From assembly GCA_964438255.1 (NCBI GenBank), contig CAYTKA010000010.1, forward strand, positions 787 to 64,786: a stretch of DNA of 64,000 nucleotides, read 5' to 3'. The position numbers and the translations under genes were made by a program. The stretch's first letter is position 1. Every line of letters begins with the position of its first letter. The DNA is from an uncultured Gemmatimonadaceae bacterium. GTDB taxonomy: Bacteria > Gemmatimonadota > Gemmatimonadetes > Gemmatimonadales > Gemmatimonadaceae. Positions 50,509 to 57,939 of this stretch are shown piece by piece. Below the pieces are notes generated by a model, which made no database searches, was not told where the DNA came from, and was given only the letters and a program-made list of their open reading frames with translations.

Positions 50509-50591
50509 GGTCTGGTATACCGCGTGAGGATGGCGTGTGGTCCGACGACCACGCGATCGCCGAGGGTGCAAGGATCGCACCCCGGAACTGC

Positions 50592-50620
50592 TTGCTTCTG
50601 CCATGCGCGCCGGCTATCTA
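50592..50620 (+). promoter_or_regulatory. Sigma-70-like promoter candidate TTGCTT-N17-TATCTA
   Basis: TTGCTT 50592-50597, a 17-nt spacer, and TATCTA 50615-50620, upstream of the metH leader. Confidence 0.35.
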
Positions 50621-50657
50621 TAAAGGGTACCACAAAGCGCACCACACAACCGTCGTC

Positions 50658-50741
50658 GTGGCGATTTCCAGCAAATTGCGGCCACGTTAATCCTCTGCTA
50701 AAGCGCGAGCCCGCACGCCGATCGCGTTTGGGCCTTTTTTT
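50658..50741 (+). promoter_or_regulatory. Candidate riboswitch/attenuator leader (motif copy A) with intrinsic terminator, upstream of metH
   Basis: Hairpin CGUGGC...GCCACG with the loop starting GAUUU, conserved tail GUUAA...UGCUAA..GCGCGA, then GCCC(GC)...(GC)GuuuGGGC and a U7 run (50735-50741), 15 nt before the metH ATG. About 41/57 aligned positions are identical to the copy at 56665-56725. Confidence 0.55.
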
Positions 50742-50755
50742 CGTCCGGTACTTCG

Positions 50756-53700
50756 ATGTCCGATTCTCCTGCATTCTCCCCGCATCGCTCGTCCTCTCCC
50801 TACCTCCGTGCGCTGGACGAGCGCGTGCTCGTCTACGACGGGGCAATGGGGACGAACATTCAGCGGCACAATCCCACCGCCGAGGACTACGGGGGCAAGT
50901 CGCTCGAGGGGTGCAACGACAACCTCGTCCTCACGCGGCCGGACATCATCCAGTCCATCCACGAGTCCTTCCTCGCCGTGGGCTGCGACGTGGTGGAGAC
51001 CTGTACCTTCCAGAGCACGCCGCACCGTCTGCGCGAGTGGGGGATCGAGGACAAGGCTCGCGACCTCAACGTTCGAGCAGCGCAGCTCGCCCGCGCGGCG
51101 TGCGACAAATACGCCACCCCCGACCGCCCGCGCTTCGTCGCCGGCTCGATCGGCCCGACGGGAATGCTCCCGTCGAGCAGCGATCCCGCCCTGTCCAACA
51201 TCACCTTCGATGCGCTCGCCGAAACGTACTACCTCCAGGCCAAGTACCTGGCTGAGGGAGGAGTGGACGTGCTGCTCGTCGAGACGGCGCAGGACATCCT
51301 CGAGGTCAAGGCGGCGCTCACCGGCTTCGAGCGGCTGTTCGCCGAGCTGGGACGTCGCATCCCGGTGCAGGCGCAGGTCACGCTCGACGTGAGCGGCCGC
51401 ATGCTGCTCGGCACCGACATCGCCAGCGCGCTCACCACGCTCGAGGCGATGCGCGTGGACGTCGTGGGGCTCAACTGCTCCACCGGCCCCGAGCACATGC
51501 GCGAGCCCGTGCGCTTCCTCACCGAGCACGCGTCGCTCCCCATCTCGGTGATCCCGAACGCCGGCCTTCCCCTCAACACCGGCACGGGTGAGGCGATCTA
51601 TCCCCTCGAGCCGAAGCCGATGGCGGGGATGCTGCGTGACTTCGTCGAGGAGTTCGGCGTGCGCATCGTCGGCGGCTGCTGCGGCACGACGCCGGAGCAC
51701 CTGCGGGAGATCGTGTCCGCCGTGCGCACCGCCGATCCGGTGGAGCGGCCCGCACACGCGCGCGAGGCAACGGTGTCGTCGGCCATGCGCGCGACGTCGA
51801 TCCGGCAGGAGCCGGCGCCGCTCCTCGTCGGCGAGCGCGTGAACGCGCAGGGGTCGCGCAAGGTGAAGCGGCTGCTGCTCGCCGACGACTACGAGGGGAT
51901 CCTCGAGGTCGCGCGCGAGCAGCAGGAGTCGGGTGCGCACGTGCTCGACATCTGCGTCGCCGTCACCGAGCGCGCCGACGAAGCCGACCAGATGGCGAAG
52001 CTGGTCAAGCTGCTCTCGATGAGCGTCGAGACACCGCTCATGATCGACTCCACCGAGGCGCCGGTCATCGAGGCCGCGCTGGAGCACGTGCCGGGGCGCG
52101 CGATCATCAACTCCATCAACATGGAGAATGGCCGCAAGCGCATCGACTCCGTGGTGCCGATCGCCAAGAAGCACGGCGCCGCGCTCGTGGCGCTGACGAT
52201 CGATCCGATCGGCATGGCCAAGACACGCGAGCGCAAGCTCGAGGTGGCGAAGAAGATCTACGACATCGTCGTCGGCGAGTACGGCCTGAAGCCGGAAGAT
52301 CTCGTCTACGACGCGCTCACCTTCACCCTCGCCACGGGCGACGCGGAGTGGGTGGACAGCGCGCACGAGACGATCGAGGGGATCCGCCTGATCAAGCGCG
52401 AGCTGCCCGGTGTCTTCACCATCCTCGGGGTCTCCAACGTGAGCTTCGGGCTCGATCCCGACGCGCGGCACGTGCTCAACTCCGTCTTCCTGCATCACTG
52501 CGTGGCAGCGGGGCTCGACGCGGCCATCGTCAACCCGGCGCACATCAAGCCGTACGCCGAGATCAGCGCCGAAGAGCGTACGCTGGCGGACGATCTCGTG
52601 TTCAATCGTCGGCCGGATGCGCTCCAGCGGTTCATCGACGCCTTCGCCAGCAAGGGCGGGAGCAGCGCCGTCGAGGAGAAGGAAGATCCGACGGCCGGCA
52701 TGACACCGGAGCAGAAAGTCCACTGGATGGTCCTTCATCGCAAGAAGGAAGGGATCGAGGACGCGCTCGATACCGCCGGCGTGCAGGAGAATCCGGTGCG
52801 CGTGCTCAACGACGTACTGCTCCCCGCCATGAAGGAGGTCGGCGACAAGTTCGGCGCCGGTGAGCTCATCCTTCCCTTCGTGCTCCAGAGCGCCGAGGTG
52901 ATGAAGAAGGCGGTGAAGCACCTCGAGCAGTTCCTGGAGAAGGCGGAGGGCTACACGAAGGGCAAGGTCGTGCTGGCCACCGTGTATGGAGACGTGCACG
53001 ACATCGGCAAGTCGCTCGTCAACACGATCCTCAGCAACAACGGCTACACCGTGTTCGACCTCGGCAAGCAGGTGCCGGTGAACACGATCATCGAGAAGGC
53101 GCTCGAGGTGGAGGCCGACGCGATCGGACTGTCCGCGCTGCTCGTGAGCACGAGCAAGCAGATGCCGCTCTGCGTGCAGGAGCTCGACAAGCGCGGCATT
53201 CAGATCCCCGTGCTCATCGGCGGCGCGGCGATCAACCGCCGTTTCGGCCGGCGCGCGATGTTCGTCGACGGCGAGCGCCCGTACGACTCCGGCGTCTTCT
53301 ACTGCAAGGACGCGTTCGAGGGGCTGGAGACGATGGACTCGCTTCAGGACAGCCCCGAGCGGCGGCGGGACGCCATCGCGCGCCTCATCGACGAGGCGCG
53401 CAAGGACGTCTTCCTGCACGGCAACGTCGGCAAGGACGTGAAGGCGGGGATCGCCGGCGGCGAGCGGAGCGACGTGACGCACGATCACGCCATTCCGTCA
53501 GCGCCGTTCTTCGGCACGCGCGTGCTGAACGACATCCCGCTGAACGAGGTGTTCGACCTGCTCGACCTCGACGAGCTGTATCGCCTCCAGTGGGGCGGCC
53601 GCGGCTCGGGGCCGGAGTTCGAGCGCATGGTGCGCGAGGAATTCGAGCCCACGCTCGAGCGGCTGAAGAAGGAAGCGCTGGCCGAAGGGTGGGTGACGCC

Positions 53701-54283
53701 GCGTGCCGTGTACGGCTACTTCCCGGCGCAGAGCGTCGGCAACGAGCTGGTCGTCTACGACCCTGACGCGTACGCGAAGGACGGCTCGCTCGTGGAGAAG
53801 ACGCGCTTCCATTTCCCGAGACAGGAAGGGCGCGAGCGGCTGTGCATCGCCGATTACTTCCGCTCGTCCACCAGCGGCGACGTCGACGTCGTCGGCTTCC
53901 AGATCGTGACGGTGGGCGACGAGGCGACGCGTCGCTTCGAGGCGTTGCAGGCGGCGGGCGAGTACACGGAGGCGTTCTACTCCCATGGCCTTGCTGTCGA
54001 GACGGCGGAGGCGGTCGCCGAGTGGCTGCACCGCCACGCACGTCGCGAGCTCGGGATTCCCGGCGGGCGCGGCAAGCGCTACTCGTGGGGGTACGGCGCC
54101 TGCCCCGACCTCGAGGACCACGCGCAGCTCTTCACGCTGCTCCCCGCCGAGGCGGCGCTGGGCATGGAGCTGACGTCGGCGTTCCAGCTCATTCCGGAGC
54201 AGAGCACGGCGGCGATCATCGTGCATCACCCGCAGGCCAAGTATTACGCGGTTCGTACGGGCGGGGAGGCAGTGCTGTCGTGA
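50756..54283 (+). CDS. metH: Cobalamin-dependent methionine synthase
   Basis: 1175 aa. Hcy-binding domain (VYDGAMGTNIQ, GGCCGTTPEH), pterin-binding domain, B12 domain (GDVHDIGK) and AdoMet-activation domain (RYSWGYGACPDL). Confidence 0.95.
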   Translation: MSDSPAFSPHRSSSPYLRALDERVLVYDGAMGTNIQRHNPTAEDYGGKSLEGCNDNLVLTRPDIIQSIHESFLAVGCDVVETCTFQSTPHRLREWGIEDKARDLNVRAAQLARAACDKYATPDRPRFVAGSIGPTGMLPSSSDPALSNITFDALAETYYLQAKYLAEGGVDVLLVETAQDILEVKAALTGFERLFAELGRRIPVQAQVTLDVSGRMLLGTDIASALTTLEAMRVDVVGLNCSTGPEHMREPVRFLTEHASLPISVIPNAGLPLNTGTGEAIYPLEPKPMAGMLRDFVEEFGVRIVGGCCGTTPEHLREIVSAVRTADPVERPAHAREATVSSAMRATSIRQEPAPLLVGERVNAQGSRKVKRLLLADDYEGILEVAREQQESGAHVLDICVAVTERADEADQMAKLVKLLSMSVETPLMIDSTEAPVIEAALEHVPGRAIINSINMENGRKRIDSVVPIAKKHGAALVALTIDPIGMAKTRERKLEVAKKIYDIVVGEYGLKPEDLVYDALTFTLATGDAEWVDSAHETIEGIRLIKRELPGVFTILGVSNVSFGLDPDARHVLNSVFLHHCVAAGLDAAIVNPAHIKPYAEISAEERTLADDLVFNRRPDALQRFIDAFASKGGSSAVEEKEDPTAGMTPEQKVHWMVLHRKKEGIEDALDTAGVQENPVRVLNDVLLPAMKEVGDKFGAGELILPFVLQSAEVMKKAVKHLEQFLEKAEGYTKGKVVLATVYGDVHDIGKSLVNTILSNNGYTVFDLGKQVPVNTIIEKALEVEADAIGLSALLVSTSKQMPLCVQELDKRGIQIPVLIGGAAINRRFGRRAMFVDGERPYDSGVFYCKDAFEGLETMDSLQDSPERRRDAIARLIDEARKDVFLHGNVGKDVKAGIAGGERSDVTHDHAIPSAPFFGTRVLNDIPLNEVFDLLDLDELYRLQWGGRGSGPEFERMVREEFEPTLERLKKEALAEGWVTPRAVYGYFPAQSVGNELVVYDPDAYAKDGSLVEKTRFHFPRQEGRERLCIADYFRSSTSGDVDVVGFQIVTVGDEATRRFEALQAAGEYTEAFYSHGLAVETAEAVAEWLHRHARRELGIPGGRGKRYSWGYGACPDLEDHAQLFTLLPAEAALGMELTSAFQLIPEQSTAAIIVHHPQAKYYAVRTGGEAVLS

Positions 54284-54338: not shown

Positions 54339-54549
54339 GGCCGTAACAATGCACCGACGCATCACGCACGCCGATGGTACTGCGGTACTCGGGTACTGCG
54401 TACTTCGTACGGCGACTCGGCGCAGCTATTCTCTCGACGCGCGCGGCGCCAAATGCGGCATGAGACCGCCGGCTCTATCGGGAGGCGTGCAAGCCCGGTG
54501 TGGTTTTCCGCCGGTCACCGCACCGGAGCATCGGTGCATTGTTACGGCC
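54339..54549. repeat. Perfect 19-bp inverted repeat (core of a longer imperfect palindrome) in the metH / yitJ-like intergenic region
   Basis: GGCCGTAACAATGCACCGA (54339-54357) and TCGGTGCATTGTTACGGCC (54531-54549), 173 nt apart. Flanking segments cgtgga/tccacg, cctcga/tcgagg and ggta/tacc extend the pairing to about 54310-54585. Confidence 0.9.
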
Positions 54550-54649
54550 AGTCTGTGAGTTCCACGTACTCGAGGACTGCCTACCAATTGCTCGCCGTTC
54601 ACTCCCCGCCAGTCCAGGTATCTGGCACCGCAAGGATGCGGAGCATTCA

Positions 54650-56575
54650 ATGAGTACAGCAACACTGCATCGCCTGACCGACCCCGACTCGCTCGTCCTG
54701 TTCGACGGTGCGATGGGAACGATGCTGTACGCGAAGGGCATCTTCATCAATCAGTGCTACGACGAGCTGAATCTCCGCTCCCCCGATCTCGTGCGCGACG
54801 TGCATCGCCAGTACGTGGCGGCGGGCGCGGAGGTGCTGGAGACGAACAGCTTCGGGGCGAATCGGCTCAAGCTCGCGCCCTTCGGGCTCGCCGCGCAGAC
54901 GCGCGAGATCAATCGCCGCGCCGCGGAGCTGGCGCGCGAGGCAGCCGACGAGGGGCACGACGTGCTCGTCGCCGGGGCCGTCGGACCGCTCGGCGTGCGA
55001 CTCGAGCCCTATGGCCCCACGTCGGCGGCGGAGGCGCGCGAGATCTTCCGCGAGCAGATCGAAGGGCTCCGGGAAGGGGGCGCGGATCTGTTCATCCTCG
55101 AGACCTTCGGTGACCTGCACGAGATCGGGCAGGCGATCGTTGCGGCGCGCGAGGTGGATGCGTCGATTCCCGTCGTGGCGCAGATGACGATCGGCGCGGA
55201 CGGGCTCACACCATACGGTGCGACGCCGGAAGACGTGGCGCGCGCACTCGACCGCTTCGGCGCCGACGTCATCGGTCTCAACTGCTCCGTCGGCCCGCAG
55301 GCGATCCTCGACGCGATCGAGAAGATGGCCCCGGTGACGAAGAAGAAGCTCTCGGCGCAGCCGAATGCCGGCATGCCGCGCGACGTGAGTGGTCGCCGCA
55401 TGTACATGGCGAGCCCCGAGTACATGGCGACGTACGCGCGGCACCTCGTGCAGGCGGGCGCGAAGATCGTGGGTGGCTGCTGCGGCACGACGCCGGAGCA
55501 CATTCACGCCATGGTCGAAGGGGTGCGCCCGCTCAGCCCACGCTTCGCGCGCGTCGGCGGTGCGGCGCACGCCGGCGCGACGGCACCGCCGCGCGACACC
55601 AGGCGCGTGCCGGACGTGGAGGCGGTGCCGCTCGCCCAGCGCTCGCGCTGGGGTGCAAAGATCGCCGCCGGAGCGTTCGTCACGAGCGTGGAGATCGTGC
55701 CGCCGCGCGGGGTGGACGCGACGCGCATGCTCGCCGACGTCGGACAGCTCAAGCGCGCCGGCGTGGACGCCGTGAACGTCCCCGACGGCCCGCGCGCGCA
55801 GAGCCGCATGGGCGCCCTGCTCACGTCGCTGCTGGTCGAGCAGCGCGTCGGCATCGAGACGGTGACGCACTACGCGTGTCGCGACCGCAACCTGCTCGGC
55901 ATGCTGAGCGACCTGCTGGGCGCATCGGCCGTCGGCCTGCGCAACCTGCTGCTCATCACCGGCGACCCCCCGAAGATGGGGCCGTACCCGAGTGCCACGG
56001 CGGTGTTCGACATCGACGCGATCGGGCTCACGAACCTCGTACGCAACCTCAATCACGGCCGCGACCCCGGCGACAACGCCATCGGCGCGCCGACGCAGTT
56101 CGTGATCGGCGTCGGGGTGAACCCCGCCCCGATCGATCTGGAGCACGAGCTGAAGCGGTTCGCGTGGAAGGTCGAAGCCGGTGCGGAGTTCGCCGTCACG
56201 CAGCCCGTGTTCGACGCGGCGCAGCTCGAGAACTTCCTGCGTCGCACGGAGGGCAATCGCATCCCGATCGTCGCCGGCATCTGGCCGCTCGTCAGCGTGC
56301 GCAACGCCGAGTTCCTCGCCAATGAGGTGCCGGGCGTGAGCGTGCCCGAGGGCGTGATCACGCGCATGCGAAAGGCGGGCGAGCGCTCGAAGGAACATGC
56401 GGTGGCCGAGGGGATCGCCATCGCGCGCGAGATGCTCGAGCGCGTGCGCGCGAGCGTGCAGGGCGTGCAGGTGTCGGCGCCCTTCGGCAAAGTCGAGCTG
56501 GCGCTCGAGGTGTTCGGCGACACCGTCGCCCCCGATCCGATCGCTGCCAGCGCGTCCGCGCCTGCTCCCGCGTGA
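54650..56575 (+). CDS. Bifunctional homocysteine S-methyltransferase / 5,10-methylenetetrahydrofolate reductase (YitJ-like)
   Basis: ATG 54650 after GGAG. N-terminal LFDGAMGTMLY...GGCCGTTPEHI (Hcy-binding domain) and a C-terminal MTHFR domain (VTSVEIVPPRG...LLLITGDPP). Confidence 0.9.
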   Translation: MSTATLHRLTDPDSLVLFDGAMGTMLYAKGIFINQCYDELNLRSPDLVRDVHRQYVAAGAEVLETNSFGANRLKLAPFGLAAQTREINRRAAELAREAADEGHDVLVAGAVGPLGVRLEPYGPTSAAEAREIFREQIEGLREGGADLFILETFGDLHEIGQAIVAAREVDASIPVVAQMTIGADGLTPYGATPEDVARALDRFGADVIGLNCSVGPQAILDAIEKMAPVTKKKLSAQPNAGMPRDVSGRRMYMASPEYMATYARHLVQAGAKIVGGCCGTTPEHIHAMVEGVRPLSPRFARVGGAAHAGATAPPRDTRRVPDVEAVPLAQRSRWGAKIAAGAFVTSVEIVPPRGVDATRMLADVGQLKRAGVDAVNVPDGPRAQSRMGALLTSLLVEQRVGIETVTHYACRDRNLLGMLSDLLGASAVGLRNLLLITGDPPKMGPYPSATAVFDIDAIGLTNLVRNLNHGRDPGDNAIGAPTQFVIGVGVNPAPIDLEHELKRFAWKVEAGAEFAVTQPVFDAAQLENFLRRTEGNRIPIVAGIWPLVSVRNAEFLANEVPGVSVPEGVITRMRKAGERSKEHAVAEGIAIAREMLERVRASVQGVQVSAPFGKVELALEVFGDTVAPDPIAASASAPAPA

Positions 56576-56647: not shown

Positions 56648-56667
56648 CGCTTGCAGAACCGAACGCC

Positions 56668-56757
56668 GTGGTGATTTGCCGCCGTTGCCGCCACGTTAAA
56701 CAAGATGCTAACACGCGACTCGCCCGGCGGCGCTCCCGACCGGGCGTTCTTCGTTTC
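56668..56757 (+). promoter_or_regulatory. Candidate riboswitch/attenuator leader (motif copy B) with intrinsic terminator, heading the sulfur-assimilation operon
   Basis: Hairpin CGUGGU...GCCACG with the loop starting GAUUU, tail GUUAA...UGCUAA..CGCGA, then terminator CGCCCGG (56721-56727) / CCGGGCG (56740-56746) plus UUCUUCGUUUC. Confidence 0.55.
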
Positions 56758-56874: not shown

Positions 56875-56946
56875 ATGTGTGCGTGCGCCTGTATCGGCGC
56901 GCACGCGACGACACGACGACGGTCGGGGAGGGGACGGCGCGGCTGA
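56875..56946 (+). CDS. Candidate Cys-rich leader peptide (MCACACIGAHATTRRRSGRGRRG; the frame is open upstream to GTG 56785, adding ...NGACACRDG)
   Basis: Frame read directly: ggt gcg tgt gcg tgt cgt gac ggg atg tgt gcg tgc gcc tgt. That is 5 Cys in 12 codons, 4 of them TGT. Only a weak SD. Lies between two terminators upstream of Cys/sulfur genes. Confidence 0.3.
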   Translation: MCACACIGAHATTRRRSGRGRRG

Positions 56947-56986: not shown

Positions 56987-57013
56987 GGCCGCTCGTTCGA
57001 GCGGCCTTTTTTT
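56987..57013 (+). terminator. Strong intrinsic terminator 38 nt upstream of the rhodanese start
   Basis: GGCCGCTCG (56987-56995), a short loop, CGAGCGGCC (56998-57006) and T7 (57007-57013). Confidence 0.8.
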
Positions 57014-57051: not shown

Positions 57052-57939
57052 ATGCCTACCATCGCAGTCGACCCGACGCCCGCCGCGATCGCCGACAAGG
57101 GCTACGTCCACCCCGACGCCCTCGTCTCGACATCGTGGCTCGCGGAGCACCTCGACGATCCGTCCGTGCGGATTCTCGAGAGCGACGAGGACGTGCTCCT
57201 CTACGACCTCGGCCACATCCCGAACAGCCAGAAGATCGACTGGCATGAGGACCTCAACGACCCCGTGCAGCGCGACTACGTGAGCCGCAAAGCGTTCGAG
57301 GCGCTCGTGCGCCGGCTCGGCATCGACGAGTCCACCACCGTCGTGTTCTACGGCGACAAGAACAACTGGTGGGCGACGTACGCCTTCTGGGTCTTCCGCC
57401 TCTTCCACTTCCCGAACGCGCGGATCCTCGACGGCGGGCGGACGAAGTGGGAGGAGGAGGGGCGCCCCTTCGTCACCGAGACGCCGACCTTCCGCGCCAC
57501 GACCTACCGCGCCCCCGAGCGCGACGACCGCGTCATCCGCGCCTTCCGCGACGAGGTGCTCGCGCACAGCGCGGCGCGCCGCCCGCTGATCGATGTGCGG
57601 TCACCCGACGAGTACACCGGCAAGAAGACGCACATGCCGGAGTATCCGCAGGAGGGCGTGCTGCGCGGCGGCCACATCCCCGGCGCGAAGAGCGTCCCAT
57701 GGGCGCGCGCCGCAAATCCCGACGGGACGTTCAAGAGCGCACCCGAGCTCCGCGCCATCTACGAGAGCGAGGCCGGCCTCCGTACCGGCGACGACGTCGT
57801 GGCGTACTGCCGCATCGGCGAGCGCTCGTCGCACACCTGGTTCGTGCTCACGTATCTCCTCGGCTACGAGAAGGTGCGCAACTACGACGGGAGCTGGACG
57901 GAGTGGGGCAACGCGGTGCGCCTCCCGATCGAGAAGTGA
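57052..57939 (+). CDS. Thiosulfate/3-mercaptopyruvate sulfurtransferase (tandem rhodanese, SseA/CysA2-like)
   Basis: 295 aa with active-site loop [12 protein letters not shown] and AGGAGA as SD. Confidence 0.9.

Follow-up and report, generated by a model that had tools for sequence, protein, structure and literature searches.

The closest described counterparts of the RNA element reported here are the SAM-II riboswitches, represented by the metA element of A. tumefaciens, whose aptamer binds SAM selectively and discriminates against SAH (PMC1273637), and by the metX aptamer with a known crystal structure (PDB 2QWY). In this structure, the RNA forms an H-type pseudoknot whose P2b major groove accommodates residues U10-U12 of loop L1. 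The SAM adenine is stacked between U21 and G22 on the 5' side of P2b; its pairing partner is U44, an otherwise unpaired residue of the 3' strand, and the U20-A46 and U21-A45 pairs flank it (PMC3303485). The adenines A33 and A35-37 of loop L3 form an A-minor twist on P1 (PMC12434664). The arrangement of promoter, aptamer, terminator and Met gene was published for SAM-II in 2005 (PMC1273637), and a survey found SAM-II to be the riboswitch class most often linked to regulatory terminators (PMC2258182). A further met-gene leader RNA, the beta-proteobacterial 'metXZ element', was proposed to be novel and to work by a terminator-antiterminator mechanism (Leyn et al. 2014; PMC4239095), and has since been described as canonical SAM-II (PMC5473149).

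We analysed a GC-rich stretch of 64 kb (64,000 nt, referred to as the window in its full length) from a Gemmatimonadaceae-like bacterium. A sequence-only reading of this DNA had described a block of about 57 nt shared by the leaders of metH (copy A, 50654-50709) and of a sulfate-assimilation cluster (copy B, 56664-56719), and had interpreted it as an unclassified, candidate novel riboswitch of the Met/SAM family without a match to the SAM-II or SAM-V consensus. The block itself was confirmed, as 41 of 57 columns were identical in a global alignment of the two copies. Taken by itself, this pairwise likeness was only marginally above the shuffled background (local score 15.5, compared with 12.3 ± 1.2 and a maximum of 16.5 for shuffles in the 64-kb GC-rich window), and it is the profile and covariance-model evidence which shows that the resemblance goes beyond chance. 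An nhmmer profile made from relatives recognized copy A with E = 6e-17 and copy B with E = 4e-11, and no third match was found in the window at E <= 1. A covariance-model search of the window, one of the checks that the sequence-only reading had proposed, gave the same picture: our own model built from relatives, with both window copies in its training set, scored copy A at 72 bits and copy B at 47.7 bits, the next match being at 12.8 bits. By both methods, the window contains exactly two copies.

The class of the element was identified with the Rfam covariance models, which had also been proposed as a check. The whole window was scanned with Rfam 15 at gathering thresholds, and the single match was that of copy B (56658-56728, forward strand, upstream of the rhodanese/sulfate-assimilation cluster) to RF00521 with 38.8 bits. 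This family (SAM_alpha) is the SAM-II riboswitch, or 'metA element', and has a gathering score of 36 bits. In a permissive scan of positions 50540-50800 (261 nt), copy A (50648-50720, forward strand) matched RF00521 with 23.3 bits (E = 0.0022), i.e., below the gathering score. RF00521 was the sole family matching copy A at E <= 10; SAM-V (RF01826), SAM-II long-loop (RF01726), SAM/SAH and SAH were absent, so that copy A differs in this respect from SAM-V and from the long-loop variant. A permissive Rfam scan of the copy B leader for further families returned nothing credible.

The N-terminus of the window MetH is 67-88% identical to MetH proteins from Gemmatimonadaceae MAGs, and 80 related metH loci served as the comparison sample. 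The same element was present upstream of metH in 79 of these 80 loci, 40-230 nt before the MetH match; in the exception, L065, the upstream sequence is only 31 nt long. Homologues in front of metH in relatives, which the sequence-only reading had named as a further check, are therefore common. When 56 of the metH leaders were scanned with Rfam, 41 exceeded the RF00521 gathering score (37.7-48.9 bits), so that copy A is orthologous to leaders already classed as SAM-II by curated annotation. L071, with the leader type of the cultured relative Gemmatimonas aurantiaca, scored 41.6 bits. The other 15 were sub-threshold, among them all 11 tested leaders with the L3 type of the window. RF01726 matched in a single relative (L031), and only weakly (30.9 bits, cut-off 44).

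Since copy B passes the RF00521 cut-off, copy A matches this family alone and most metH orthologues are above threshold, the claim of an unclassified, novel element had to be given up, as had the statement that no SAM-II consensus fits: RF00521 matches both copies, copy A sub-threshold. The functional part of the same proposal, a SAM-family transcriptional riboswitch in which a promoter is followed by a ligand-sensing RNA and then by an intrinsic terminator and a Met gene, is supported by the RF00521 matches and by the layout. We conclude that the metH leader of this Gemmatimonadaceae-like bacterium very probably contains, as copy A, an S-adenosylmethionine riboswitch of the SAM-II class that works as an OFF switch via termination. 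It would be a slightly divergent SAM-II copy and not a new riboswitch class, and most likely stops metH transcription when SAM is plentiful. The one mark of family membership that copy A lacks is the RF00521 gathering score, which is an annotation threshold and not a biological criterion. Its position is that of a SAM-II element, on the sense strand (forward) in the 5' leader of a gene of Met/SAM metabolism, and binding of SAM with rejection of SAH would be expected from its membership in the class.

Two other structured elements were observed upstream of metH leaders in the relatives. L049 carries a c-di-GMP-I-GGC riboswitch (RF03167, 61.6 bits, cut-off 59) at 814-913 on the reverse strand; it is on the strand opposite to the metH leader and precedes it by a few hundred nt. 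In L064, a long imperfect inverted repeat of GGGUGCUUC-like units (30-165) precedes the metH leader and is probably a hairpin of repeat origin; it produced spurious sub-threshold matches to models of miRNA precursors from plants and animals.

Copy A shares with the A. tumefaciens metA element and the metX aptamer the order of its parts (P1, L1 with GAUUU, UUGC, P1', L3, GCUAAA), the predicted H-type pseudoknot, the SAM-pocket residues and the promoter-aptamer-terminator-Met gene layout (PMC1273637, PMC3303485). All of its parts lie on the forward strand. The 5' strand of P1 (CGUGGC, 50657-50662) pairs with its 3' strand (GCCACG, 50681-50686), and this helix of about 6 bp encloses L1 and the 5' strand of P2, as in SAM-II. 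L1 (GAUUUC, 50663-50668), of which GAUUU (50663-50667) is found in 79/80 leaders, is the counterpart of U10-U12 of 2QWY, the residues engaged in triples in the P2b major groove (PMC3303485). The 5' strand of P2b (UUGC, 50676-50679), directly before the 3' strand of P1, is present in 80/80 leaders and corresponds to U20, U21, G22 and C23 of 2QWY (PMC3303485). The 3' strand of P2b (GCUAAA, 50697-50702), likewise present in 80/80 leaders, is followed by GCGC as a candidate 3' strand of P2a, the two together covering 50697-50706; U50699 is the equivalent of the unpaired U44 that pairs with the SAM adenine in 2QWY. Judged by its sequence, copy A thus holds P1 and every SAM-pocket motif of the crystal structure (GAUUU, UUGC and GCUAAA).

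The proposed helices were compared in 76 distinct leaders. P1 was paired in 99.3% of the cells, and all four P2b pairs between UUGC and GC..AA were formed in 76/76 leaders. The covariation test of P1 and P2b in the same leaders showed pairs that were 99-100% compatible yet invariant, and hence no covariation: since these positions never vary, the alignment provides compatibility and no covariation support. It is the Rfam model together with the crystal structure that supports the predicted fold of copy A, not the alignment of leaders. For the candidate P2a, columns 21-57 and 22-56 are invariant G-C and C-G pairs (G21-C57, C22-G56), and a short P2a in the leaders is plausible. The sole varying pair is that of columns 20-58, with GC in 47 leaders, AU in 10, GU in 7 and no pairing in 11, including the clade of the window.

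The bases flanking UUGC and GCUAA in copy A (50675 and 50702) are both A, like the A19/A47 mismatch of 2QWY (PMC3303485). In copy B (56686-56712), a G precedes UUGC and a C follows GCUAA, forming a possible G-C pair; most relatives have C and A. This may be a compensated P2 position. In the pseudoknot-free minimum free energy fold of the window leader (50663-50679), GCGAUUU pairs with AAAUUGC and extends P1, so that without ligand neither L1 nor the 5' strand of P2b would be accessible. In relatives with AACUUGC, a mismatch is expected in this pairing.

The part of copy A that departs from canonical SAM-II is L3 (50687-50696, forward strand). Canonical L3 is UUAAACAAUC, with UUAAACAAnnC as the consensus; copy A has the pyrimidine-rich variant UUAAUCCUCU with two adenines, in which the conserved UUAA start is retained and the later adenines are replaced by pyrimidines, and its score is below the curated cut-off. 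This L3 type, (U)UAAUCC... in place of UUAAACAA..., occurs in leaders L001-L007, L014, L036, L040 and L044, and 11/11 tested leaders of this type were below the Rfam cut-off. A comparison of leader L011 (40.1 bits) with leader L007 (26.5 bits), which agree in P1, L1 and the loop and diverge chiefly in L3 and the tail, locates the score deficit in these two segments. The pyrimidine-rich L3 of the window clade reduces the model score with the ligand pocket untouched, as far as the pocket motifs indicate.

Promoter, aptamer and terminator are all conserved among the relatives. The promoter-like pair that had been claimed upstream of copy A is present as TTGCTT (50592-50597) and TATCTA (50615-50620) with a 17-nt spacer (50592-50620, forward strand, read from the sequence); it fails a stricter sigma-70 scan, and what holds is the loose pattern, which is kept in relatives. 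TTGnnn-N16-18-TAnnn[AT] was found within the 82 nt before the aptamer in 59/77 orthologous leaders, compared with about 0.004 expected per stretch of this size from the rest of the loci. An ACAA[CT] box is conserved 9-13 nt upstream of P1 in 52/79 leaders (about 50644-50651 in the window); its position behind the -10-like element probably places it at the transcript 5' end or close to it.

The intrinsic terminator proposed in front of metH is also present (50709-50741, forward strand). It consists of a hairpin (50709-50733, GCCCGC...GGGC) with the outer stem GCCCG/UGGGC and the inner stem ACGC/GCGU, -13.9 kcal/mol, followed by seven U (T7 in the DNA, 50735-50741); the distance from T7 to the ATG at 50756 is 14 nt, not 15 as had been stated. 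It lies between P2 and the ORF, as in SAM-II members whose expression platform is a terminator. A hairpin ending at most 3 nt before a U tract was found in 78/80 orthologous leaders (median dG -14.2 kcal/mol, median z -2.6 against shuffles), with dG <= -8 in 77 leaders. The terminator stems vary between lineages with complementarity kept, for example from GAGCCC/GGGCUC to GAGCUC/GAGCUC in L005, which belongs to the clade of the window.

We propose the following mechanism for copy A. At abundant SAM, the ligand would bind in the P2b major groove and lock the tail GCUAAAG(CGC) into the pseudoknot/triplex; with the tail locked, the hairpin 50709-50733 with its U7 tract would form, and RNA polymerase would terminate before metH. 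At low SAM, the free tail AAGCGCGAGC could pair transiently with the terminator segment ...UCGCGUUU and delay the terminator, which would allow read-through into metH and probably also into the downstream gene for a homocysteine-methyltransferase/MTHFR fusion. The candidate antiterminator (50701-50729, forward strand), suggested by folds of the nascent tail, would pair AAGCGCGAGC with GC (50717-50718) and UCGCGUUU (50722-50729); the tail segment 50701-50708 is AAGCGCGA. In nascent-transcript folding, the antiterminator helix (-10.6 kcal/mol) was the best structure just before GGGCC was made, and afterwards the terminator won (-13.9 to -15.0 kcal/mol). Most other lineages allow pairing between their tail, AGCGCY, and RGCGC in the terminator 5' arm, and folds of truncated transcripts, before controls, showed an apparent antiterminator in 52/55 leaders. 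Shuffled controls gave a median z of -1.3 (5 pairs compared with 3.75 in shuffles); the longest tail helix had a median of 5 bp compared with 4.2 bp in dinucleotide shuffles and was significant at 5% in 7/78 leaders, the clade of the window not being among them. Since the controls removed most of the signal in this GC-rich sequence, we keep the antiterminator of copy A as an inference only. In L007, UCGCGUUU is retained despite the loss of the inner 5' arm, its partner in the terminator, which is a small hint for an antiterminator. In equilibrium folds the terminator forms whether the tail is blocked or free; therefore, any switching must be kinetic.

Copy A might instead be a decayed SAM-II relic that has lost SAM binding; its hairpin and U7 tract would then attenuate metH constitutively or under some other control, or have no role. 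Its position under the Rfam cut-off, the loss from L3 of two adenines used in docking to P1 (PMC12434664) and the missing significance of the antiterminator would fit such a reading. However, P1 and all pocket-forming motifs are identical to those of above-threshold orthologues, the promoter and terminator are retained as well, and the L3 type is kept in 11 leaders that belong to MetH proteins 74-88% identical to that of the window and in which flanks, L3 details and terminator loops vary around an invariant core. The presence of the same variant in 11 related leaders indicates that it is tolerated, and the unchanged core between varying flanks points to a functional element rather than a relic, this being the pattern expected under purifying selection. 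We therefore regard decay as very improbable.

Another reading accepts copy A as a genuine SAM-II aptamer and places its main effect on the initiation of metH translation or on mRNA stability, with the hairpin and U7 tract either being incidental or contributing to a dual mechanism like that of S. meliloti metA. Masking of the ribosome-binding site is known for many SAM-II members, the crystallized metX RNA included (PMC3303485), S. meliloti metA has a demonstrated dual role (PMC9373788), and the terminator is always the equilibrium fold in the copy A leader. However, the P2 3' strand neither contains nor adjoins a purine-rich Shine-Dalgarno sequence, about 50 nt separate the end of the aptamer from the ATG, so that it is the U tract and not the aptamer that adjoins the start codon, and the hairpin with its U tract is kept in 78/80 leaders with compensatory changes. 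Control mainly at the level of translation or stability is thus highly improbable. It is extremely unlikely that copy A belongs to a new riboswitch class, or that it is a SAM-II-like fold which has come to recognize a different ligand (SAH, methionine or homocysteine). The only points in favour are its sub-threshold RF00521 score and unusual L3. Against such a reading, SAM-II is its sole family match, its paralogue copy B and most orthologues are bona fide RF00521 matches, the variation sits in L3, which contacts P1 rather than the ligand (PMC12434664), the residues in contact with the ligand are all retained (PMC3303485), and there is the precedent of a 'novel' met-gene RNA (PMC4239095) that was later judged canonical SAM-II (PMC5473149).

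The gene that a SAM-II switch in copy A would regulate is metH (50756-54283, forward strand), as had been proposed: it encodes a cobalamin-dependent methionine synthase of 1175 amino acids with all five Pfam domains (S-methyl_trans, Pterin_bind, B12-binding_2, B12-binding and Met_synt_B12). The following ORF (54500-56575, forward strand) encodes a fusion of homocysteine S-methyltransferase and MTHFR domains (Pfam PF02574 and PF02219). A terminator scan of the forward strand between metH and this ORF found none, and the fusion ORF may be co-transcribed with metH and hence be under the control of copy A.

The statement that each copy ends in an intrinsic terminator just before the first gene holds for copy A; the hairpin behind copy B is weak, and about 240 nt with a second terminator precede the rhodanese gene. 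The copy B hairpin (GCCCGG...CCGGGC, 56722-56757, forward strand) is followed by the interrupted U tract GUUCUUCGUUU, and the approximately 240 nt after it include a short Cys-run ORF, a strong terminator and a Shine-Dalgarno-like GGAGAG, before the rhodanese ATG at 57052. The short ORF, MCACACIGAHATTRRRSGRGRRG, starts with the ATG at 56875, has its Cys codons at 56878-56892 and ends with the stop codon at 56944-56946 (forward strand); the strong intrinsic terminator is located at 56987-57013 (forward strand), about 40 nt before the rhodanese ATG. Since the hairpin at 56722-56757 is far weaker than that at 56987-57013, the leader of the sulfate-assimilation cluster appears to hold two successive termination points.

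The SAM-II motif was found in none of 80 metagenomic rhodanese loci in which orthologues of copy B were sought. Four of these SAM-II-less loci contain a Cys-run ORF with a terminator (L085 MPCCCDRC..., L087 MLCCC..., L099 MCAACPC... and L113 MCCACPC...), and a fifth, L160, is doubtful. The combination occurred in 5/69 cases on the forward strand (including the doubtful L160), in 0/69 on the reverse strand and in 1/69 coding-region controls. Polycysteine leader ORFs are Cys-responsive attenuators in mycobacteria (bioRxiv 10.1101/834739; PMC1262725). By analogy, the ORF and terminator of the window are a candidate Cys leader-peptide attenuator, apparently in tandem behind the SAM-II copy B, and the mechanism would be of this known type.

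The comparison with the described systems can now be completed. The fold of copy A is unrelated to that of SAM-I, which has a four-way junction, and no SAM-I Rfam match was found in the window. SAM-I controls the yitJ-type homocysteine-methyltransferase/MTHFR. With SAM-I (S-box) of Firmicutes, copy A would share the ligand, the OFF logic, transcription termination and the control of methionine and sulfur genes (for the general role, see PMC4239095). With the 'metXZ element', copy A shares, as far as descriptions go, the nature of a met-gene leader RNA with a terminator, and both were first proposed as a new RNA and then recognized as SAM-II; taxon and target genes differ. Unlike known SAM-II riboswitches, which have alpha-proteobacterial or Bacteroidetes hosts and the reported targets metA/X/Y/Z, hom, metC and metW (PMC4239095), copy A has a Gemmatimonadota-like host and metH as its target. 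Our literature search for SAM-II or riboswitches in Gemmatimonadetes/Gemmatimonas found no relevant paper. Relative to the literature searched, the phylum and metH as a SAM-II target are new; the range is extended and the kind is the same.

A more far-reaching interpretation can be formulated for the leaders with the AAUCC-type L3, that is, the window and at least 11 relatives in three MetH-identity groups, of which the tested ones were below the Rfam cut-off. They could form a structurally distinct SAM-II subtype without the four-adenine A-minor twist, in which folding, binding or the timing of the decision could therefore depart from canonical SAM-II; together with copy B, SAM-II would then have been recruited in Gemmatimonadota to the B12-dependent MetH and, in tandem with a Cys-codon attenuator, to sulfate assimilation. 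We consider this unlikely.

For SAM-II as a family, the main value of the finding is corrective, as it places the metH leader RNA in a known class. Since the lineage-specific L3 variant drops the score under the Rfam gathering score, routine annotation will miss real members, and adding the variant-L3 leaders to the RF00521 seed alignment would improve recall. The L3 variant also offers a natural test of how important the A-minor twist between L3 and P1 is for SAM-II function. For the organisms, the practical value is modest: across Gemmatimonadaceae, the standard leader of metH is a SAM-II element.
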